From Bacilli bacterium (GTDB lineage: Bacteria > Bacillota_I > Bacilli_A > RFN20 > CAG-826): 64,000 nucleotides of DNA. Positions 9,751-62,802 of the stretch are shown here, piece after piece (the stretch's first letter is position 1; each line of letters opens with the position of its first letter). Both the position numbers and the translations under genes were made by a program. Below the pieces are notes generated by a model. It saw only the letters and a list, made by a program, of their open reading frames with translations. It ran no database searches and had not been told where the DNA came from. The stretch spans positions 50,854-114,853 of the forward strand of contig JAKSVG010000001.1 of NCBI GenBank assembly GCA_024408105.1, in the 5' to 3' direction.

Positions 9751-10165
9751 TTTATCAAGAAATAAACAGCATGAATTGAATACTATTTGCATCTATGATG
9801 CATTAACATACGTCTATTCCGGTCAAGAATTTTCTGTTGAAGAAATTATGTCATCCATATTTGAAAAAGAATATGTTGAAATACCTTCTTTCGATAAGGA
9901 AGTTGTTATAAAATCTCTTACCCATTTAGACGAAATTATTTCCATTTTTCAAGAAAAAATGCCCAAAATGTCTTTTGATAGGTTAAATTTACTTGAAAGA
10001 TCGATTCTAATTATGAGCTATACAAATTTTAAATTTGTTGGCGGGGTTGATAAAAGAGTTGTTATCGATACTGCAATAAAATTATCAAAAAAATATTTAG
10101 GAACAGACTATTCTGGCAAGGACGACTATAAATTTGTGAACGCAATATTGGATAATGTTTTATGA
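9734..10165 (+). CDS. nusB: Transcription antitermination factor NusB
   Basis: NusB-like about 140-aa protein located between asp23 and xseA, matching Bacillus synteny. The start is probably the GTG at 9740 (9 nt after GGTGAGG), not the TTG at 9734. Confidence 0.7.
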   Translation: MLVENNLSRNKQHELNTICIYDALTYVYSGQEFSVEEIMSSIFEKEYVEIPSFDKEVVIKSLTHLDEIISIFQEKMPKMSFDRLNLLERSILIMSYTNFKFVGGVDKRVVIDTAIKLSKKYLGTDYSGKDDYKFVNAILDNVL

Positions 10166-11376
10166 TGCAAAATAATGAAGCTTTCTCAGTTACAGCTTTA
10201 AACAAATACATCAAACTTATGTTTGATAATAATTTTTCGTTGCGAAATTTAACTGTGAAAGGTGAAATTTCAAATCTAAAAAAATATCCAAGCGGCCATG
10301 TGTATTTTTCATTAAAAGATGAAGAATCTGTCATCAAAGCTGTTATGTTTTATGATTATGCAAAGCATCTCAACCAAAACATCAAAGATGGCGATGAGGT
10401 ACTTGTCACAGGAAATGTCAGCGTATATCCATCTAGGGGTGAATATCAAATATATGCAGTCGCAATGGAACTAAATGGAGCTGGAGCTCAGCTTTTAGAA
10501 TTGGAACTTCTTAAAAAGAAACTTGCCGCAGAGGGATTATTCGACATCTCTCGCAAAAGAAAAATTAATATTTTTCCAAAATCTGTTGGCGTTATTTGCG
10601 CGCCTAACTCAGCGGCAATGGCTGATATAGTCACGAATTTGCTCCGCAGATTTCCTCTTGTAGAGGTCAAAAAATTCCCTAGCCTTGTCCAAGGTAGCGA
10701 AGCAGTAAAATCGCTCTTAAATGCCTTAAATGAGGCCAAAAACAGCAATTTAGATACATTGATTATCGGTCGAGGTGGTGGAGCAAGCGAAGACTTGAGC
10801 GCATTTAATGACGAAACGCTTGTGCGCAAACTCGCAAACTTCCCAGTCCCAACAATAAGTGCTGTCGGCCACGAAATTGATTTTACACTGATAGATTATG
10901 TTGCTGATGCCAGAGCATCAACTCCCACAGGAGCTGCAGAATTAGCAACAGTTGATAAAAGAGAGATATTTCAAAAATTAGATCATGCTGATTCATCATT
11001 AACTAAGTTAATAGAAGACAAGAATGAACGTTATAGATCAAAGCTTGAATCAATTAGCAAAAGACCTTTCTTTATTAATCCAAAAACAATGTATATTGAT
11101 AAGTTGAAGGATTTAAAAATCATTAGTGATAAACTTAATTTAGTTGTAAAGCATCTTATAGATGAGAAAATCAATTATATAAATTCTCAAAGCAAACATT
11201 TGCATGCATTATCTCCCAATGGAGTTTTAAAAAGAGGTTACTCAATATTGCAAAACGAGAATGGCGCAGTTATTAACAGCACATCGATGATAAAGTTAGA
11301 TTCTACTGTTAAAACAGTATTAGCTGACGGAATAATAACATCAAAAGTTATAAAAAAGGAGAGCAAAAATGGATAG
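10162..11376 (+). CDS. xseA: Exodeoxyribonuclease VII large subunit
   Basis: OB-fold N-terminus and XseA catalytic core. Followed by xseB. Confidence 0.88.
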   Translation: MMQNNEAFSVTALNKYIKLMFDNNFSLRNLTVKGEISNLKKYPSGHVYFSLKDEESVIKAVMFYDYAKHLNQNIKDGDEVLVTGNVSVYPSRGEYQIYAVAMELNGAGAQLLELELLKKKLAAEGLFDISRKRKINIFPKSVGVICAPNSAAMADIVTNLLRRFPLVEVKKFPSLVQGSEAVKSLLNALNEAKNSNLDTLIIGRGGGASEDLSAFNDETLVRKLANFPVPTISAVGHEIDFTLIDYVADARASTPTGAAELATVDKREIFQKLDHADSSLTKLIEDKNERYRSKLESISKRPFFINPKTMYIDKLKDLKIISDKLNLVVKHLIDEKINYINSQSKHLHALSPNGVLKRGYSILQNENGAVINSTSMIKLDSTVKTVLADGIITSKVIKKESKNG

Positions 11377-13540: not shown

Positions 13541-14743
13541 ATGTCAAAGATTATTCTCCATATTGATTTGAACCAATTCTTTGTTCGCTGCGAAGAAATT
13601 AAAAATCCTAACCTTATAGGAAAACCAGTTATTATTGGACACGATGGTCGAGGCGGAATTGTTTCAACATGTTCATATGAGGCAAGAAAATTTGGCATCA
13701 AAAGCGGTATGCCAACATTCATGGCTATTAAATTAAATCCAAAAGTGATAATGATTCCAGGCGATTATAAATTTTATTCGTCAATGTCGCGAAAATTTAT
13801 TAATTTTATTAAAACAAAAGCAACGAATATAGAACAAGCCTCAATTGATGAGTGTTATGTTGATATGACAAAAGAATTAAAAGACGTAAAAAATGTTGAG
13901 CAATATCTTTTAGATATGCAAAACGAGTTATATGAAAAAACGGGGTTAAAATGTTCAATAGGCGTAGCTCCCACCAAATTTCTTGCAAAAATGGGGAGCG
14001 ATATGAAAAAACCAATGGGATTAACTATAATTCGCCGAAAAGACATAAGAAAAATGATTTATCCGTTGCCCATTAGTGATTTTTATGGAATTGGTAAGAA
14101 AACTACGCCTAAATTAGAAAAGATTGGAATTAAAACTATCGGTGATTTAGCAATAAGAGTAAATAATGATGACAAAGTCATAAAAAACGAATTAGGCAAA
14201 TTCTTTTTTGCGGTAAAAGATATGATTAATGGACAGAGCAGCGATTATGTAGACTCTGAACCATTTGATCCAAAATCAATTGGTAATAGCCATACGCTTC
14301 CATTTGATACAAATAGCTATAATGATTTGAAAGAAAATTTAGTTATATTGGCCGAGGAAGTATCACAACGAGCAAAAGAAGCAAATAAGGTTGGAACAAC
14401 AGTTCAAGTAGTTCTAAAAGATAACGGATTCAAAGTTATCAATAGATCTATATCATTTAGCAAGCCAACCAACGATTTTGATGTAATCAAATCTTATACA
14501 ATTCAATTGTTAGACAAAAACTACGATAGCGAAAAAATGATTAGGTTAGTAGGAGTAACACTTCAAAATCTAATTAACCCTTCGGAGGTTACTATTCAAA
14601 TGTCTATTTTTGACGATTTTGAGAAGATAAAAGAAGAATGCGCAACAAAGTTGCTCATTTCAGAACTAAATAGAAAAATGAACAAGTCTGTTTTTAAGAC
14701 TGCTGCAGAATTGGAGTCAGAAAAAAGAAATGGAAGTAAATGA
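13541..14743 (+). CDS. dinB: DNA polymerase IV (Y-family translesion polymerase)
   Basis: N-terminus HIDLNQFFV...C..., with the conserved Y-family palm, fingers and little-finger layout. Confidence 0.88.
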   Translation: MSKIILHIDLNQFFVRCEEIKNPNLIGKPVIIGHDGRGGIVSTCSYEARKFGIKSGMPTFMAIKLNPKVIMIPGDYKFYSSMSRKFINFIKTKATNIEQASIDECYVDMTKELKDVKNVEQYLLDMQNELYEKTGLKCSIGVAPTKFLAKMGSDMKKPMGLTIIRRKDIRKMIYPLPISDFYGIGKKTTPKLEKIGIKTIGDLAIRVNNDDKVIKNELGKFFFAVKDMINGQSSDYVDSEPFDPKSIGNSHTLPFDTNSYNDLKENLVILAEEVSQRAKEANKVGTTVQVVLKDNGFKVINRSISFSKPTNDFDVIKSYTIQLLDKNYDSEKMIRLVGVTLQNLINPSEVTIQMSIFDDFEKIKEECATKLLISELNRKMNKSVFKTAAELESEKRNGSK

Positions 14744-30581: not shown

Positions 30582-30596
30582 AGACTTCTTTTTATT
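30565..30596. terminator. Bidirectional terminator between convergent ispG and nfo
   Basis: Palindrome GAAGTCTT-a-AAGACTTC with flanking A- and T-runs. Overlaps the ispG stop. Confidence 0.55.
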
Positions 30597-31467
30597 TTCT
30601 CCAGTCAGCTTCGAATTTATTATTTAAAAGCATTTCGATTTCTTTTTTATATGGAGGTTTGCCATCATAATATGGAGTTTCAAGAATTTTTGGGATATTA
30701 ATTAACCGAGGATCATGAACGTATTTGGCAAGCGCTTCAAATCCTATTTCTCCATATCCAATATTTTCATGTCTGTCTTTATGCGACCCCATTGGATTCT
30801 TTGAATCATTAATGTGAATGCATAATAGATACTTTAAACCAACAATTTCATCAAACGATTTCAAAACATTATCAATATCATTGATATCTAGGCCCTCATC
30901 ATTCACGTGACAGGTATCTAAACACACTCCAACACGTTCAGGATTACGAACGTGAGTAATAATATAATGAAGCTGATCAAATGATGAACCCATTTCACCG
31001 CCTTTGCCTGCCATAGTTTCAAGAGCAATTTTAACTTCTGTACCATCTTTGGAAAAAACTTCATCCAAAGCCTTTACAATAGAATCTAGGCCGTTTTCAA
31101 CACCAGTGCCAACATGACTGCCTGGATGAAGAACAAGTATTTTTAAGCCAAAATCTTGAACACGTTTAAGTTCTTTTACCAAATTATCTTTAGATATTTG
31201 GTATAATGATTCATTTAACTGATTGGCAATGTTTAAAATATATGGAGCATGAACAACAATTTTATCTTCATTTAGCCCCGCTTCTTTAATAAGTTTTCTG
31301 CCTTCAGCAATTTTTAGTTTATCTGTTGGTATTCTAAAGGAGTTTTGTGGAGCACCTGTGTAAAACATAAAAGTAGATGAACCATAGGTTAAAGCTTCTT
31401 TAACAGAGCCAATATAATAATCGGGTCCAGACATCGATACATGTGAACCAATATAAATCTTATCCAT
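30592..31467 (-). CDS. nfo: Endonuclease IV (AP endonuclease)
   Basis: Xylose-isomerase-like TIM barrel with the Nfo metal-binding His/Glu/Asp pattern. Confidence 0.88.
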   Translation of the reverse strand: MDKIYIGSHVSMSGPDYYIGSVKEALTYGSSTFMFYTGAPQNSFRIPTDKLKIAEGRKLIKEAGLNEDKIVVHAPYILNIANQLNESLYQISKDNLVKELKRVQDFGLKILVLHPGSHVGTGVENGLDSIVKALDEVFSKDGTEVKIALETMAGKGGEMGSSFDQLHYIITHVRNPERVGVCLDTCHVNDEGLDINDIDNVLKSFDEIVGLKYLLCIHINDSKNPMGSHKDRHENIGYGEIGFEALAKYVHDPRLINIPKILETPYYDGKPPYKKEIEMLLNNKFEADWRK

Positions 31468-39744: not shown

Positions 39745-40464
39745 TTATATCTTATTCAAAAGATTTATAGATTTTATATCTATTTGGGCATTATCATAAG
39801 CAAACTTCTTAAGATCATTAATTAATTCTAAGCATTCTTGTTTTGTAAATATAACTTTATCAAAGTTATTGATATCTACTTTAAATATGTAACGAATTAT
39901 TTTAAGTTTTCTACTGTCACATTGAACGTGTTTTGAAGGCATATAGCAGTCTTTGCATATAAATCCTCCATCTAGATATGAAACGGCTGTAATTTGGCTT
40001 GTTTTGCCACAAATAACGCAACTATCAACGTTAAGTTGGTATCCAGTTTCTTTTAATACAACTGCAAAATAAATTAAACCAATGGTAAACGGATCAAATC
40101 CTTCATCCAATAATTCTAAGGCTTTGCTAAACCAATTATAAACTTTAGCGGCGTCATCATTTTGGATAAATTTATTTGTTATTTCTCCAATCATATCCGC
40201 AATGGCTAGTGTGGAAATATTATCTTTGATATGAGGGAAACTAGTATGTAATTCTCCACTTCTTAAAGAAAAACCTTCTTTACCTTTAGATAATTGAAAT
40301 TTTGCCTTAGAAAAAAGATTTACAGTTGGTGCGTTTTTGCTTTCAAATTTTAATACGCCTCTAGCCAAAAACGAAATGATTCTATCATTGGTTAAGACAT
40401 TTACCACTGCATCATTTTCACGAAAAGGGGTGGCTCTAATCACAATGCCTTCAATCTCGAACAT
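39745..40464 (-). CDS. recO: DNA repair protein RecO
   Basis: OB-fold N-terminus plus a C-terminal CxxC...CxxC zinc motif. Follows era. Confidence 0.82.
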   Translation of the reverse strand: MFEIEGIVIRATPFRENDAVVNVLTNDRIISFLARGVLKFESKNAPTVNLFSKAKFQLSKGKEGFSLRSGELHTSFPHIKDNISTLAIADMIGEITNKFIQNDDAAKVYNWFSKALELLDEGFDPFTIGLIYFAVVLKETGYQLNVDSCVICGKTSQITAVSYLDGGFICKDCYMPSKHVQCDSRKLKIIRYIFKVDINNFDKVIFTKQECLELINDLKKFAYDNAQIDIKSINLLNKI

Positions 40465-54763: not shown

Positions 54764-55848
54764 AATAATTCCAATAAGACACGATCGAGGGTAACTATCC
54801 CTTCATCGCTAAGCATTATTCTATCATTATTTATGATAAGAAGGTTATCATTAATTAATTTTGTGATTTTAGAAGAAAATATTTCTGTGAAATCGTGCCC
54901 AAATCTTTCTTTAAAATCTAATCTAGAAAAACCATCTTCTAATCTTAAGTTGCATAGCAAATAGTCTTCAAGAATTTCTTCTTTGCTAAGTTTTTCACTG
55001 GTTCCAATAAAATCGTGTTTCAAATAATTGGTCAGGTTTTTTGTGTTTGTATATCTAACGCCATTGACATAACCGGATGCGCCTAAACCGGCCCCATAGT
55101 ATTCTTCATCTTTCCAGTATGTAAGATTATGTCGTGAAAATTTTCCGTTCTTTGCAAAATTACTAACTTCATAACGCTTAAACCCATGCTTTCTCAATGC
55201 ATTTACGATATGATCGTAATATAAACGCGAATCGTCCTCGTTTTGTTCTTTGATTCCTTTGTTGTAAAAAGCTGTATTTTTAGAAACGATAAGAGAATAA
55301 ATAGAAACATGGTTTGTGTTTAAATTGATTATATTGTTTAAATCATTTTTTAGGTCATCCAAACTTTGGTGAGGAAAACCGTAAATCAAATCAACATTTA
55401 CTTCAAAATATTTTTGTAATTCTATGACGGCGTTAATAGCGTCTTGATATGTATGATGTCTGCCTATTGCTCTTAAAAGAGCATCATTTGTAGATTCCAC
55501 CCCTACAGAGACTCTTGTGACACCATATTTTTTCATCAAAATGATTTTTTCTCCAGAAAGATTTTCAATGTTCGCTTCGACAGTGAATTCTCCTCCTTGT
55601 TCGAGCAATGGAGAAACTTTTTTTAGTAGACTTTCAAATTCATCTAGCGATAATGCTGTCGGGGTACCACCGCCAATATAAATCGTCTTTACATGATCAA
55701 TATTGAATGAATCAATTTCATAGAAAAGAGCCTTTAGATAGGGCTCGGAAAATTTTTTGTTATAGAATAGTTTTGTAAAATCGCAATATTCACATATATG
55801 TGCGCAGAAGGGCACATGGATGTACAAAGAATTAGTCTTTTTTGGCAT
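54760..55848 (-). CDS. hemW: Radical SAM haem chaperone HemW (HemN-like, oxygen-independent coproporphyrinogen oxidase-like)
   Basis: CxxxCxYC near the N-terminus (CAHICEYC) and a HemN C-terminal domain. Lies between lepA and hrcA, as B. subtilis yqeR does. Confidence 0.82.
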   Translation of the reverse strand: MPKKTNSLYIHVPFCAHICEYCDFTKLFYNKKFSEPYLKALFYEIDSFNIDHVKTIYIGGGTPTALSLDEFESLLKKVSPLLEQGGEFTVEANIENLSGEKIILMKKYGVTRVSVGVESTNDALLRAIGRHHTYQDAINAVIELQKYFEVNVDLIYGFPHQSLDDLKNDLNNIINLNTNHVSIYSLIVSKNTAFYNKGIKEQNEDDSRLYYDHIVNALRKHGFKRYEVSNFAKNGKFSRHNLTYWKDEEYYGAGLGASGYVNGVRYTNTKNLTNYLKHDFIGTSEKLSKEEILEDYLLCNLRLEDGFSRLDFKERFGHDFTEIFSSKITKLINDNLLIINNDRIMLSDEGIVTLDRVLLELL

Positions 55849-56098
55849 CGTTTTTAGTTACATCTTTTAATGTGGCTTCTTCCATTTGCTTTTGGATATT
55901 TTCATCCTCGATTGGAACTAAAATACGATCAAGTTCTTGCTTTGCAAGTTCTTCTTCTGAAATATCGTCTTTTTTGATTTGAAGCGATGTAAAATGTTTC
56001 TTAACTAAAATAATGATTAAAATCAATAATCCAAAAAATGCTAAAACAGAGATTAAGATAACACCTGTTAATGCTGGTCCGTCCAATAATAATTTCAT
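55832..56098 (-). CDS. Small single-pass membrane protein
   Basis: 88 aa with an N-terminal TM helix and an acidic/basic tail. Overlaps the hemW start. Confidence 0.45.
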   Translation of the reverse strand: MKLLLDGPALTGVILISVLAFFGLLILIIILVKKHFTSLQIKKDDISEEELAKQELDRILVPIEDENIQKQMEEATLKDVTKNDAKKD

Positions 56099-56118: not shown

Positions 56119-57495
56119 TTACTCTTTAGTGATTGGTGTGTAAACAAACTTATTTTTTACTTGCTCGCGTCTGTAATAGCCAGCACGCGCTAAATTATCC
56201 ATAGATGTGCGCGCTGTTTCATAAACACATTTTTCACATTGTTTAAATTGTTGAATTGTATAATATTTGCCCATTGTGCAATGCCTCACATAAAAGTGAG
56301 CATGGCTTGGTCTTAATGTAGGATCACTTTCCAACAAATCTTCTGCAGCTCTTTTAAGAGCTTTTTCATCTAACTCTTGGAAAACTTTTACATTTACTTT
56401 TGGTTGATTATTAGCTGGCTGAGCAGGTTTTTTGTTATCAACAACAGGTTTTGTTTCATTGTTTATAGATGGCTGAATATATACTTTTTCATCTTCAACT
56501 TCAGGTTCATCGCTATAAAAAGCTTTTTCAGTTGCGTCTCTAGAAACTGTAACAACTCTATCAAGAACCAAAGATAGAATGTCATCAGTCATTTTAGCTG
56601 ATTCAATAACATAATATGTTAAATCATTATTTTTTTGAGCTTCTTTAGAGCAATTCGATAATAATCCTCTAGTATCAATTAGCAGGATCTCCATAGGAAT
56701 TAATGCTGCCGCATGAATTTTATGATTTTTTTGAATTACTGATTTAATTAAAAGAGCAGTCATCTCTTCATTGTAATTCTCAAAGGGCATAATGTAATTC
56801 ATAGCAAAGCTAATGCCAGCAATTTTTGTCAGAATATCAACATTTGAATCATTCAAAAATACAATCAAATTCTCCATCATCGATTCAATAGCAGATGTTG
56901 GTGCGCCATTATATTCTCGATTTATTAGTACTTTTTGACTAGGAGCGCTTATTTCATTTTCTCTATAAAATGAAGTTAATTCGCCACCCTCGAGTATTTC
57001 TAAAAATTTAGCAATTAATGACTCATCAATAATTAAATTATTAGTTTGTTCTAGCATGGTAAGAGCGGAGTAATATCTCGAAATTGGCTCATATAATAAG
57101 TCACAGCTTCTACCAGCGATAATATTATCTAAAGCTATATCATTTACAATGATGTTTTTAACTTTGGCGATATGTCGTAAACTTTGACGCATCATATCTT
57201 TACGGAAAGTTTCTTTTTCAATAGAGCCGTCCTTTAATGAATCAAACTCAGAAAAGACTTGTTCTATTCTAGAATTTATTTTTTCGCATTTGTTCAATAC
57301 ATTGCTTGTCAATGTTACATAATAAGAGTATTTATTAATATCTTTCAAAGAAAGATAAGACATAAAAGTCTTACGATAATTAATAATTTGAACCCAAATT
57401 GAATCAATTAAATTTGTTCCTAATGATTTCGCAACATCACTTCTAGTTGCGTAAACTTCATCCGTGAAACGAATAGCAAGATTAGAATTAGCCAT
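56119..57495 (-). CDS. Hypothetical protein with a degenerate Fic-like motif (possible pseudo-Fic)
   Basis: 458 aa. The segment MPFENYNEEMTALLI aligns with the Fic core HPFxDGNGRxxRLL, with the catalytic His and the GNGR replaced. GAGAGGT RBS. No terminator separates it from lepA. Confidence 0.4.
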   Translation of the reverse strand: MANSNLAIRFTDEVYATRSDVAKSLGTNLIDSIWVQIINYRKTFMSYLSLKDINKYSYYVTLTSNVLNKCEKINSRIEQVFSEFDSLKDGSIEKETFRKDMMRQSLRHIAKVKNIIVNDIALDNIIAGRSCDLLYEPISRYYSALTMLEQTNNLIIDESLIAKFLEILEGGELTSFYRENEISAPSQKVLINREYNGAPTSAIESMMENLIVFLNDSNVDILTKIAGISFAMNYIMPFENYNEEMTALLIKSVIQKNHKIHAAALIPMEILLIDTRGLLSNCSKEAQKNNDLTYYVIESAKMTDDILSLVLDRVVTVSRDATEKAFYSDEPEVEDEKVYIQPSINNETKPVVDNKKPAQPANNQPKVNVKVFQELDEKALKRAAEDLLESDPTLRPSHAHFYVRHCTMGKYYTIQQFKQCEKCVYETARTSMDNLARAGYYRREQVKNKFVYTPITKE

Positions 57496-59391: not shown

Positions 59392-59420
59392 ACTTTAGTA
59401 TTTTATTACAATCCTAATTT

Positions 59421-61748
59421 TTAGTCATTCCAAAATTTTTTAACTGTTCTATTAACATCTTCTGGGCATGTTACTACTATGTAGTCATTCCATTCGTTTT
59501 TAAACAAATCCCTATAGGTTGAATTCATATATCTTTCGTCAATTAGCAAAGCAACTCCTCGGTCAGATTCACTTCTAATTACTCTTCCGACTGCTTGCAT
59601 AACCTTATTCATCCCTGGATTAATGTAACTATAGTTGTAACCTTTATTATTTTCTTTATCAAAGAACTCGCGAATCTTTTCTTTCTCAAAGCATATTTGT
59701 GGTAATCCAACACCAACTACAACAACGCCAATAAGTCTATCACTCACAAGATCTATACCTTCTCCAAATGCTCCTCCGACTACAGCAAGACCAACAGTTG
59801 TAACTTTAGGCTTGTCGGTAAATAACGATAAAAAGTCGCGCTTATCAACTTCGCTCATATCTTTTTCTTGAACGATTAAATTTGCATCATCAAGATTTAA
59901 AACATTTTTCAAATTTTCAAGATATTCATAACTTGGAACATAAATAAAATAGTTTCCTATTTTGCCTTTAACAAACTCTTTGATGTATGATGCAACAACT
60001 TTATAAGTTGAATTTCTATCTTTATATTTTATTGAAACTTTTGGAGCAATCATTAAACACAAGTTTTCTTTTGGAAATGGCGACGGTAACATTAAAACAG
60101 GACTCTCACCGCTGCCACCAATCATATTGATATAGTAATCAATAGGAGAAAGGGTAGCAGAAAAAACTACTTTACTTCTCACTTTGTCCAATGATTTTCT
60201 TAAAAAATCGCTTGGGTTTAAGCACAACAAGCAAATCTTTGTATCGTTATCGCTTTTAGAGATGTAAAGGCAGAAGTTTTCGTTAAAATACTCAAGCAAA
60301 CGATTAAATCTAACTAAATCATGCGAAAATGAAACAAATTCATCTGTTATGAATTCATGATGATGTTTTGACACATCAATTGATGCTAAAAGATACGCTT
60401 CAATTGCATTCAGCGAGGTTTGGCTTAAAGATTCAATTATTGTTTCGCCATTTTCTAAATTGCTATATTCAGAAAATATCTTTGATATTCTTTTTATGGC
60501 ATTCTTAATCTTTTTATGTTCTAAGTGCTTTAATGAACGCTTTACTTTTTTAAATAGCGATTCACTAATAGATGAACTATACATTCCTCTGCCTCTTTCC
60601 ACAAGATTGTGCGCTTCATCAACTAAGACAGCCATTTTTGAGGCATCTTCATCAAAATAACGTTTCAAGTAAACCATCGGATCGAAGAAATAGTTATAAT
60701 CACAAATTATTATGTCAACATATAAAGACAAATCTAATGATAATTCAAATGGGCATATTCCTTTTTTGGATGCGATGCCTAAAATTACTTCACGTGAAAA
60801 TTCGTTATATGCTTTTATCGAATTAATTAATATCTTTCTGATTTTTGTGTAATAGCCTTTTGCATAAGGACATTCATCAGGATTGCAGGCTTTGCCTGGG
60901 CAATAACACATTTTGTCTTTTGCAGTTATTAGAATGTCACTTGCAATAAGACCATTTTTTCTCATAATTGAGACAGTTTGAAAAGCTGTTTCTTTGCCAG
61001 AGCCCTTCGCAGTTAAGTAGAAAATTTTATCATTGGTTTCATTAGCAAAACTTTTTGCATACGGATAAAGAGTTGAAATTGTCTTTCCAATGCCTGTTGG
61101 GGCTTCGCAGAATAATAAACCACCATCCTTGGCGATGCCATATGAGTATTTAGCTAATTTCTTTTGCCCTTTTCTAAAATTGTCGAATGGGAAAGTGAGT
61201 TTTTTTGCAGATTCATTTCTAATTATTGTTCGATTATAAATTAATTTATAAAAATCAAGGTATTCTATTAGAAGTTTATTTATATCGGTTTCTAATTTCG
61301 ATGTTTTGAATGTAAATTTCTTAATCATTCTTTCATCCGTTAATTGATGGATGTATGTAAGATTAATATTCACATGATCCAGTCCTTTTTCATGAGCGTA
61401 CATTAATGCATAGCATTTTGCTTGACCTAAATGCCATTCTTTCTGCTCATTAAAAAATGACTCTAGAGGGGAAATGGTTGATTTTATTTCATCAATCGTG
61501 ACCTCATTTTTATCTACGATAATTCCATCTGCTCTGCCTTCTAAAGATATTTTGAAGTCATCCACATCAAATGTTTCAAATAATTGGTATTCAGAAATAT
61601 AATTTTTGCCTTGTTTTGTTTGATAAAAGCTATGAATGCGTGTGCCTTCATTCATAGTAGTTTTATTAAAAACGCGATTATCGATATCGCCGGTTCTAAG
61701 CAAAAAATCAACTAACTGATGAACAGATAATTTCAAATTCTTATTCAT
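59421..61748 (-). CDS. PD-(D/E)xK (RecB/Cas4-like) nuclease domain fused to an FeS-cluster XPD/DinG-family SF2 helicase
   Basis: N-terminal about 170 aa carry GRADGII (D), IDEIKS (ExK) and QAKCYALMY (QxxxY). Then Walker A (APTGIGKT), four Cys (CYCPGKACNPDECPY) and DEAH (VDEAHNL). Confidence 0.7.
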   Translation of the reverse strand: MNKNLKLSVHQLVDFLLRTGDIDNRVFNKTTMNEGTRIHSFYQTKQGKNYISEYQLFETFDVDDFKISLEGRADGIIVDKNEVTIDEIKSTISPLESFFNEQKEWHLGQAKCYALMYAHEKGLDHVNINLTYIHQLTDERMIKKFTFKTSKLETDINKLLIEYLDFYKLIYNRTIIRNESAKKLTFPFDNFRKGQKKLAKYSYGIAKDGGLLFCEAPTGIGKTISTLYPYAKSFANETNDKIFYLTAKGSGKETAFQTVSIMRKNGLIASDILITAKDKMCYCPGKACNPDECPYAKGYYTKIRKILINSIKAYNEFSREVILGIASKKGICPFELSLDLSLYVDIIICDYNYFFDPMVYLKRYFDEDASKMAVLVDEAHNLVERGRGMYSSSISESLFKKVKRSLKHLEHKKIKNAIKRISKIFSEYSNLENGETIIESLSQTSLNAIEAYLLASIDVSKHHHEFITDEFVSFSHDLVRFNRLLEYFNENFCLYISKSDNDTKICLLCLNPSDFLRKSLDKVRSKVVFSATLSPIDYYINMIGGSGESPVLMLPSPFPKENLCLMIAPKVSIKYKDRNSTYKVVASYIKEFVKGKIGNYFIYVPSYEYLENLKNVLNLDDANLIVQEKDMSEVDKRDFLSLFTDKPKVTTVGLAVVGGAFGEGIDLVSDRLIGVVVVGVGLPQICFEKEKIREFFDKENNKGYNYSYINPGMNKVMQAVGRVIRSESDRGVALLIDERYMNSTYRDLFKNEWNDYIVVTCPEDVNRTVKKFWND

Positions 61749-61788
61749 AATTATATTTTATACAAAAAAAGACTAATTTAATAGTCTT

Positions 61789-62721
61789 TTATTTAAGAAT
61801 GATTCCGCTTAGGGATTTGTTTCCGTTAGCAAAACTCTTTCCGTCCATTTTTTTCTTTCCTTCAAGTTGAACAATATCAAGTTCTATCAGACCATCGATT
61901 AGCTGAAGTTTAATTGTTTTGTTAATATCAATTTTCCCAACCTCTCCTATTTGGTCACTAACTTTATGAGCTTTGAAAATTTTAAGTTTCTTTCCATCTA
62001 TATATAGATATGCTCCAGGCTCATCACTTAATCCCCTTATGTAATTTATAAATTCACATGAAGGTTTTGTTAAATCAAGTTTTTCATCTTCAGGTAAAAT
62101 TTTATCAGCAAAGGTCACAAGCGACTCGTCTTGACTGGCTCCTTGAAGATTTCCATTTAAATAATTTAACAAATTATTAATAGTAACATCTATTGCGGCA
62201 TCAGCTAGCTTATCACACAATGAACTATAATTATCATCTTTATCTATAACTACTTCTTTGATGGCAAACATGCGACCAGCGTCCATCTTGTCGATCATTT
62301 CCATAAGAGTTATGCCGGTTTTTTCTTCGCCATTTATAATTGCACGCTGAATGGGAGCTGCGCCTCTATATGACGGAAGAATTGAACCGTGAAGATTCAA
62401 ACAACCATAGGTTGGTATATCAAGCACAGTTTGAGGAACAATCTGCCCATAAGCCATTGTTAAAATCAAGTCAGGTTTCAAGTCTTTTAAAAAATCAAAA
62501 TCTTTTCTAATTCTGTGTGGCTGAAATACAGGTATTCCATACTTAAGAGCAATAGCCTTGGTCGGAACTGGTTCTAGTATAGCTTTTCTTCCTACAGGTT
62601 TATCTTCTTGAGCAACAAGGCCAACAAAGTTGAATCCATAATTAATTAATGCCTCAAAAACCTTTGCGGCAATGCTTGGTGTCCCCATAAAAACTAATCT
62701 ATATTCTTTCATTGTTTTCAT
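61789..62721 (-). CDS. fmt: Methionyl-tRNA formyltransferase
   Basis: Formyltransferase N-terminus (VFMGTP...) and C-terminal domain. The ORF-track start at 62760 is TTG. The ATG is at 62721 or 62712. Confidence 0.85.
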   Translation of the reverse strand: MKTMKEYRLVFMGTPSIAAKVFEALINYGFNFVGLVAQEDKPVGRKAILEPVPTKAIALKYGIPVFQPHRIRKDFDFLKDLKPDLILTMAYGQIVPQTVLDIPTYGCLNLHGSILPSYRGAAPIQRAIINGEEKTGITLMEMIDKMDAGRMFAIKEVVIDKDDNYSSLCDKLADAAIDVTINNLLNYLNGNLQGASQDESLVTFADKILPEDEKLDLTKPSCEFINYIRGLSDEPGAYLYIDGKKLKIFKAHKVSDQIGEVGKIDINKTIKLQLIDGLIELDIVQLEGKKKMDGKSFANGNKSLSGIILK

Positions 62722-62802
62722 AACGATAGTTATTATAAGAAAAACATTTAGTATTTTCAAATATTGAAAAAAGTTATAAGATTAAATTTCCGGAGGTTAT
62801 AT

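Follow-up and report, generated by a model that had tools for sequence, protein, structure and literature searches.

The nuclease-helicase gene

We analysed a stretch of 64,000 nucleotides (nt) from a Bacilli bacterium (assembly GCA_024408105.1, contig JAKSVG010000001.1, positions 50,854 to 114,853 of the forward strand), which is called the window here, and studied one gene located between fmt and lepA that encodes an EndoDinG-type nuclease-helicase. In the open reading frame (ORF) list of the window, the gene is a single uninterrupted frame of 775 codons with an ATG start. An identical protein is already found at NCBI under the name "MAG: ATP-dependent DNA helicase [Bacilli bacterium]", MAG being a metagenome-assembled genome. 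The protein can now be re-annotated from this generic name to an EndoDinG-type nuclease-helicase with its catalytic residues named. Two ORFs that run antisense inside the gene (60460-60660 and 60572-60826 on the plus strand) were considered as genes and discarded, as they had no support.

The domains and motifs of the protein are listed in Table 1, together with the other features discussed below. When the whole protein was scanned against Pfam, DEAD_2, HBB and Helicase_C_2 each scored above their cut-offs and no exonuclease domain was matched. The 188 amino-terminal residues were then scanned alone and matched PDDEXK_1 with E=2e-4 and 21.8 bits, narrowly missing the cut-off of 22 bits. Within the nuclease domain, the GRADG motif covers residues 71-75 with D74, IDEIKS covers residues 85-90 with E87 and K89, and GQAKCY covers residues 108-113 with Q109 and Y113. 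C112 is the sole cysteine in residues 1-185. Between Walker A and the DEAH box there are five cysteines (C281, C283, C288, C293 and C332); C283 among them is an additional, clade-specific one that varies among the relatives. All the motifs that the first-pass annotation of this DNA had named, namely the D in GRADG, the ExK in IDEIKS, QxxxY, Walker A, DEAH and the cysteines, were present in the frame.

Table 1. Features of the window discussed in the text (FeS, iron-sulphur; AF2, AlphaFold2).
Feature	Position	Strand	Evidence or content
EndoDinG gene, complete, 775 aa	59421..61748	minus	Full-length match to 9kqh_A, E=4e-144
PD-(D/E)XK endonuclease domain, N-terminal, residues 1-185	61194..61748	minus	PDDEXK_1, 9kqh match, AF2 model, Foldseek
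Putative DNA-entry gate loop, residues 18-31	61656..61697	minus	Low pLDDT and position homologous to FmaDinG loop
Metal-ligand residues H39, E53	61590..61634	minus	Align with FmaDinG H40, E54; invariant
Core nuclease motifs GRADG (R72, D74) and IDEIKS (E87, K89), residues 71-90	61479..61538	minus	Equivalents of FmaDinG R73, D75, E88, K90
QxxxY motif Q109-Y113, including C112	61410..61424	minus	Q109, Y113 conserved 74/74
Walker A / helicase motif I, APTGIGKT, residues 216-223	61080..61103	minus	Invariant; K222 74/74
FeS-cluster domain, C281, C288, C293, C332 and extra C283	60753..60908	minus	Alignment to FmaDinG cysteines
DEAH box / motif II, residues 377-380	60609..60620	minus	D377 = FmaDinG D378; D377, E378 74/74
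Arch domain (Pfam HBB, PF06777), residues 453-577	60018..60392	minus	33.8 bits vs 30-bit cut-off
Motor domain 2 (Helicase_C_2, PF13307), residues 590-754	59487..59981	minus	E=6e-37
fmt-helicase spacer	61749..61788	minus	Weak hairpin (AAGACTA/TAGTCTT), T-run, TATAAA and TATAAT abutting ATG
fmt, methionyl-tRNA formyltransferase, upstream neighbour	61789..62718	minus	Formyl_trans_N 7e-33, Formyl_trans_C 9e-18
lepA, downstream neighbour, 29 nt past helicase stop codon	57580..59391	minus	GTP_EFTU and LepA_C
458-aa protein between lepA and hemW	56119-57495	minus	No Pfam, no NCBIfam match
88-aa predicted membrane protein between lepA and hemW	55832-56098	minus	No Pfam match
xseA (exonuclease VII large subunit)	10162-11376
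dinB (Pol IV)	13541-14743
nfo (endonuclease IV)	30592-31467
recO	39745-40464		Assigned from translated sequence only

Match to the EndoDinG of Finegoldia magna

A search of the PDB sequences with the window protein returned 9kqh_A (748 aa), which was collinear with residues 1-753. The 188 amino-terminal residues alone also led to 9kqh, with E=7.5e-21. 9KQH is the DinG protein of Finegoldia magna (FmaDinG), the first characterised EndoDinG (Li et al., July 2026, PMC13650095). The EndoDinG subgroup got its name in 2025, from a survey of DinG-like proteins in bacteria (Cheng 2025, PMC11981726), and is defined by a PD-(D/E)XK nuclease placed N-terminally to an FeS-containing, XPD-like helicase (PMC13650095; PMC11981726). 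FmaDinG is a single-stranded DNA endonuclease that prefers Mn2+ and is also a 5'-3' helicase; in the presence of ATP it digests into duplex DNA (PMC13650095). The identity of the window protein to FmaDinG is 37% overall, with 34% in the nuclease domain and 38% in the helicase.

The two proteins were then compared residue by residue in the alignment. The FmaDinG nuclease residues H40, E54, R73, D75, E88 and K90 correspond to H39, E53, R72, D74, E87 and K89. Exchange of any of these FmaDinG residues to alanine nearly abolished the nuclease activity, and the D378A mutant was ATPase-dead and lost the ATP-dependent digestion of duplex DNA (PMC13650095). D378 is D377 in the window protein, which keeps every FmaDinG residue whose exchange had these effects on the nuclease or the ATPase. 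The cysteines C282, C289, C294 and C333 of FmaDinG align one-to-one with C281, C288, C293 and C332. The FmaDinG crystal shows Fe-S density (PMC13650095), and it is from the alignment to this structure that the window protein is predicted to be competent for cluster binding. A 4-Cys FeS insertion between Walker A and DEAH, as had been proposed at first, agrees with this alignment. Among the DNA contacts, K249, K278, K280, R578, P677, I679 and R733 are identical in both proteins. Five of the seven DNA-binding residues that were mutated in FmaDinG are identical (K249, K278, K280, R578 and R733), F698 is replaced by Y and F478 by H.

The conservation of these residues was followed in two alignments, one with 43 close relatives of 59-69% identity and one family-wide with the window protein and 73 full-length representatives, each from a separate 50%-identity cluster (n=74). 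The catalytic, the FeS and the listed DNA-contact residues were invariant in all 43 close relatives. Family-wide, H39, E53, D74, E87, K89, Q109, Y113, K222, D377 and E378 were found in all 74 sequences, R72 in 63 of them, and the four FeS cysteines in 72 to 74. With this invariance and the match of the amino-terminal 188 residues to 9kqh, the motifs are far beyond chance.

The window protein has the nuclease domain with the H/E/D/E/K catalytic set, the core of motor domain 1 (MD1), motor domain 2 (MD2) and Arch, and the CCCC FeS motif that make up an EndoDinG. We conclude that the gene is a new member of the known EndoDinG family, which has already been named, crystallised and assayed. Very probably, it encodes an EndoDinG-type nuclease-helicase that processes chromosomal DNA with one polypeptide and serves in genome maintenance.

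Several observations weigh against this reading. R10, a substrate contact in FmaDinG, is H10 in the window protein; at this position 41 of the 74 aligned sequences have H and 33 have R. The Arch contacts to DNA, D475, F478 and K482, which are reported to be specific for EndoDinG (PMC13650095), are S473, H476 and R480. The identity to the characterised member is just 37%, and the endonuclease and 5'-3' helicase activities are predicted by homology. Finally, no Cheo/LexA box (CGAACNNNNGTTCG) was found near 59,400-62,800 when up to one mismatch was allowed.

The altered Arch contacts could also mean that the protein has kept just a vestige of one activity and works as a helicase only or as a nuclease only. 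A precedent is the DinG of Staphylococcus aureus, a helicase turned nuclease in the course of evolution according to reference 18 as cited in PMC13650095. In the window protein, however, the metal ligands and the catalytic lysine of the nuclease are invariant, as are Walker A, DEAH, the arginine finger region and the FeS cysteines, all under clear purifying selection, which makes the loss of one activity extremely improbable.

Predicted structure

The whole protein was modelled with AlphaFold2 from the 43-sequence alignment, with a predicted local distance difference test score (pLDDT) of 86.5 and a predicted template modelling score (pTM) of 0.82. When the model was compared to the PDB with Foldseek, 9kqh_A was the best match (E=5e-66, TM 0.75/0.79). 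It was followed by archaeal XPD (E=1e-31, TM 0.63/0.77), Escherichia coli DinG (E=6.5e-24, TM 0.56/0.62), the S. aureus ExoDinG (E about 1e-21, TM about 0.5/0.44) and CasDinG (E about 1e-17, TM about 0.5/0.65).

Residues 1-188 were modelled separately, with a pLDDT of 91, and showed six strands and four long helices. The EndoDinG nuclease domain is described with six strands and five helices (PMC13650095; PMC11981726). Foldseek matched this model to 9kqh (1.6e-16) and to the Cas4 protein SSO0001 (2.5e-7), and further to AddA, EXO5, MGME1, ACE1, AdnA, RecE, RecB and lambda exonuclease. These matches were exclusively PD-(D/E)XK nucleases. Together with the PDDEXK_1 match, they bear out the amino-terminal PD-(D/E)xK fold that had been read from the motifs.

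In the amino-terminal part of the whole model, only residues 24-31 had a pLDDT below 50. For FmaDinG, the loop 18-28 with the helix 20-25 is proposed as the gate for DNA entry (PMC13650095). The low-confidence loop coincides with this gate and, by homology, may have a gating role in the window protein as well.

Proposed mechanism

From the homology to FmaDinG, a 5' single-stranded tail would be bound by the two RecA-like motor domains, which would translocate in the 5'-3' direction at the expense of ATP. The other, 3'-ended strand would pass a gated opening near residues 18-31 and so reach the amino-terminal PD-(D/E)XK site, which is predicted to be built from H39, E53, D74, E87 and K89. There, the threaded strand would undergo endonucleolytic cleavage, for which Mn2+ is probably the preferred metal. 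As the unwinding is driven by ATP, the cutting could advance into duplex DNA. The in vivo function of the EndoDinG family is still unknown (PMC13650095, Discussion). For the window protein, our results point to a role in DNA repair or in the processing of replication forks or DNA ends, and not in defence.

Genomic neighbourhood and distribution

The three genes fmt, helicase and lepA are on the same strand, separated by spacers of 40 nt and 29 nt. They belong to a conserved Bacillota core block that consists in the window of an AMP-binding gene, fmt, the helicase gene, lepA, hemW, an RDD gene, hrcA, grpE, dnaK and dnaJ. Other core genes in the window are relA, hisS, aspS, tkt, xseA, dxs, dinB, xerD and parE/parC-like genes, and efp, nfo, sigA, dnaG, glyQS, recO and era are also present. 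The GC content is unremarkable.

The nearest genome match was found in Faecalibacillus (Erysipelotrichales) with 54% identity, and the order fmt-helicase-lepA was kept there. Relatives with 59-60% identity have the order comEC, holA, rpsT, ..., fmt, helicase, lepA, ..., hemW, RDD, and in one of them the block extends into hrcA, grpE and dnaK. The gene thus has a housekeeping setting that is vertically inherited. The first-pass annotation had remarked that the gene sits next to fmt, where def or priA would be expected. The adjacency to fmt is real, and neither def nor priA is adjacent; the remark has no bearing on function, as fmt-helicase-lepA is a conserved housekeeping synteny.

Anaeroplasma, Listeria and the more distant relatives no longer have the gene next to fmt and lepA. 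The homologues in Anaeroplasma MAGs (35% identity) lie beside a two-component system, the Listeria homologue lies five genes from holB, and the Enterococcus homologue lies 6 kb from holA-rpsT. Distant members were found in the settings clpX-lon-engB, a gerA operon and Mut7-C/TrkA.

Apparent co-transcription with fmt and lepA, the same strand, the short spacers and the order conserved within the clade would fit a role in RNA or translation quality control, such as the processing of RNA or R-loops. A link of ExoDinG to RNA metabolism has been described (reference 25 as cited in PMC13650095), and a role in rRNA quality control is reported for the exonuclease-type DinG of Listeria. That RNA role belongs, however, to another subgroup, which has a DnaQ-type nuclease. 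FmaDinG prefers DNA to RNA as its substrate and cleaves DNA much more efficiently (PMC13650095). Moreover, the adjacency that suggests such a role is not kept in the groups named above, and the LexA operator of the Listeria homologue, described below, points to DNA damage. An RNA role is highly improbable on this evidence, and processing of chromosomal DNA is preferred.

Two proteins are encoded between lepA and hemW (Table 1). Both are kept at the same position in relatives, where proteins of 490 aa and 463 aa are found; the 463-aa protein has a weak Fic match.

A search with just the nuclease domain retrieved about 1,400 clusters at 50% identity. EndoDinG proteins were found in gut Erysipelotrichales-like Bacilli, Anaeroplasma, Enterococcus, Paenibacillus and Listeria monocytogenes, among others. 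The host of the window is itself from an Erysipelotrichales-like gut Bacilli lineage and is known as an uncultured MAG. The 2025 survey lists EndoDinG in six orders, with one strain sampled per order (PMC11981726), and no row for Erysipelotrichales was found in the searched text of its supplementary files. EndoDinG is far more widespread than these six orders.

About half of the listed representatives of the nuclease domain were short proteins. We considered whether they are stand-alone nucleases and rejected this. The one examined on a long contig (L014, 6213-8206) is a frameshift-fragmented gene in a long-read assembly, and the others are on short contigs. Such frameshift fragments call for caution when domain architectures are counted in metagenomic protein sets.

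A possible link to HemW

HemW is a radical-SAM heme chaperone, and its gene in the window is three genes downstream of the helicase. In a Lachnospiraceae-like clade, EndoDinG is directly downstream of lepA-hemW. One protein of 1192 aa (P0222; L009, 100-3678) is a fusion of HemW, with the radical-SAM and HemN_C parts, to EndoDinG, and is located directly after the 3' end of lepA and before the RNase H gene. In a second locus (L015, 750-4319), the same order lepA-hemW-EndoDinG-rnhA was observed and the hemW frame runs into the nuclease domain. When junctions were searched for further HemW-EndoDinG fusions, none was found beyond this second case, which is from the same small clade. The fusion was therefore rejected as a widespread Rosetta stone; it is a rare, clade-restricted event.

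It is unlikely that the EndoDinG of Bacilli and Clostridia is functionally tied to the stress block lepA-hemW-hrcA-dnaK. If it were, HemW or the heat-shock regulon could supply the cofactor of the helicase or control its expression, and this tie would be the first handle on the in vivo role of EndoDinG.

Expression signals

The 40-nt spacer in front of the helicase gene was read directly, and no Shine-Dalgarno sequence was found before the ATG. A promoter consensus scan did not call the hexamers in this spacer. A comparable hairpin and a TAGAAT ahead of the ATG are present in one relative (L005). As a speculation from the sequence, the helicase gene might have its own promoter in this spacer and a leaderless start.

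No Shine-Dalgarno sequence precedes three other genes in the window either, dinB (13541), dxs (11605) and ispG (29514), and -10-like hexamers are near the ATG of dinB and of ispG. Leaderless transcripts and leaderless translation are possible for such genes of the window.

The strongest promoter-like site of the region, TTGAAA-17-TATAAT (11/12), is upstream of fmt at 62760-62732 on the minus strand. The listed fmt ORF starts with a TTG at 62760, and the site lies inside this extension, upstream of an ATG at 62721 (distance 10 nt) and of a second ATG at 62712 (distance 19 nt). From these positions, one of the two ATG codons (MKTMKEY... or MKEY...) is probably the true start of fmt, which would leave a very short leader.

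SOS regulation of the helicase gene in the window was discarded, since it has no Cheo box. No Cheo box was found upstream of xseA, dinB, nfo and recO in the window either, and the host lineage may lack LexA control.

Genome maintenance or defence

Listeria monocytogenes NCTC7974 (NZ_LR134402.1) has a full-length homologue, WP_014600392.1, with 38% identity. In its promoter (L016, 6951-7006) a perfect Cheo/LexA core, CGAACGTAGGTTC (GAAC-N4-GTTC), abuts the -10 element TGTTATAAT, and it is the sole perfect Cheo match within the 16-kb Listeria locus. At the Enterococcus homologue, no Cheo box was found. From the gene order relative to holB, the Listeria protein is presumably lmo0157. lmo0157 is listed among the DNA-damage genes induced by H2O2 in a review (PMC12371860). 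The Listeria LexA box is consistent with a DNA-damage role of the EndoDinG family. In addition, this homologue could serve as an SOS-linked and genetically tractable model, whereas Finegoldia is difficult to manipulate genetically.

Helicase-nuclease fusions are common among defence systems, and the protein had at first been viewed as a possible anti-foreign-DNA enzyme. In that case it would be a relative of CasDinG, or a restriction-like system working alone to degrade invading DNA. The PADLOC model typeIV_DinG PDLC01439 ('CAS-IV-A; associated') matched residues 181-758 with E=1.4e-115 and 385 bits. This model has no curated cut-off; it appears to be a generic DinG/Rad3-type profile, which would explain the strong score, and it could yield false 'defence' calls on housekeeping EndoDinG proteins that have nothing to do with CRISPR. 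The curated Csf4 model TIGR03117, in contrast, gave 33.3 bits against a cut-off of 400 bits.

CasDinG (Csf4) shares the XPD-like 5'-3' helicase core, but it has a pseudo-FeS domain without cysteines, whereas the window protein has four, and it lacks the PD-(D/E)XK domain and is encoded beside csf and cas genes. As a structural match to the window protein it was also poorer (E about 1e-17) than archaeal XPD (1e-31).

The genomic context was then inspected. The 64-kb window contained no CRISPR array, no Rfam match and no cas gene, and no other recognisable defence gene was nearby. Nine neighbourhoods in relatives were inspected; they contained housekeeping genes, and genes for restriction-modification, cas or abortive infection were found in none of them. 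The gene order is vertically conserved. With tblastn, full-length homologues turned up in records filed as 'phage' (22) and as 'plasmid' (19). The 'plasmid' records listed were mostly about 0.5 to 3.5 Mb in size, and two were recognisably chromosomal, namely Listeria near holB and Enterococcus near holA-rpsT. The ten 'phage' records listed were all unannotated. Carriage by plasmids or phages was rejected: the plasmid matches are chromids or mis-filed chromosomes, and the phage matches are unannotated metagenomic contigs named "Bacteriophage sp." or "Listeria phage LM", whose gene content was not analysed, so that true carriage by phages may still occur.

A function against foreign DNA is very unlikely, as the gene context gives it no support, and the enzyme is not distinct either because EndoDinG had already been named and characterised. 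Genome maintenance is favoured, since cas, CRISPR or other recognisable defence genes are missing from the vicinity and relatives retain the synteny, and since the location in the core genome is vertically conserved and the Listeria homologue has a LexA box.

Comparison with other helicases and nucleases

The eukaryotic Dna2 (PDB 5EAN) also has a nuclease and a helicase, but its helicase is of superfamily (SF) 1B, whereas the window protein is of the SF2/XPD type, and its FeS cluster is inside the nuclease domain. As wholes, the two proteins are not homologous.

The nuclease domains of Cas4, AddA/AddB, RecB, EXO5 and MGME1 share the fold and the catalytic constellation, including QxxxY. MGME1 retains all the active-site residues of FmaDinG (PMC13650095). 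The nucleases of Cas4, AddB, EXO5 and Dna2 hold their own 4-Cys cluster, whereas the nuclease domain of the window protein has one cysteine. The cas4 model TIGR00372 gave 17.4 bits against a cut-off of 65 bits, and Cas4 membership was rejected for both reasons. The nuclease had been called "RecB/Cas4-type" in the first-pass annotation. It is RecB/MGME1-like, but in the strict sense it is not Cas4-type and has no FeS cluster of its own.

ExoDinG of Staphylococcus aureus and Bacillus (PDB 8zef, 9ii8) is, like the window protein, a DinG-like helicase of Bacillota in which 5'-3' translocation goes together with an amino-terminal nuclease coupled to it. Its nuclease is a DnaQ/DEDD 3'-5' exonuclease, whereas that of the window protein is a PD-(D/E)XK nuclease, and its pseudo-FeS domain lacks the cysteines, of which the window protein has four conserved ones. 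The models TIGR01407, PRK08074 and PRK07246 matched the window protein only from residue 413 onward and far under their cut-offs. Membership in ExoDinG was rejected, since the DnaQ/DEDD domain is absent and the FeS cysteines are present. The contrast to the DnaQ-type DinG of Firmicutes, which lacks FeS, had been drawn correctly from the start.

The archaeal and eukaryotic XPD/Rad3 proteins (for example Thermoplasma acidophilum XPD, PDB 9p55, 4a15, 2vsf) share the 4-Cys FeS domain and the Arch domain with the window protein but have no amino-terminal nuclease. For the helicase core, XPD is a nearer match (phmmer, 5.5e-29; Foldseek, 1.4e-31) than E. coli DinG is (phmmer, 3.8e-4). The NCBIfam model rad3 (TIGR00604) matched with 2e-51 and 175.5 bits, which does not reach the cut-off of 246.95 bits. 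XPD/Rad3 is the closest helicase relative, yet the window protein is not an orthologue.

With FmaDinG, the window protein shares the five-domain layout of PD-(D/E)XK, MD1, FeS, Arch and MD2, and the low-confidence loop of the model sits where the gate is proposed. This architecture was already known. The window protein differs from FmaDinG by H10, the extra C283, the altered Arch contacts and a C-terminal extension of about 20 residues.

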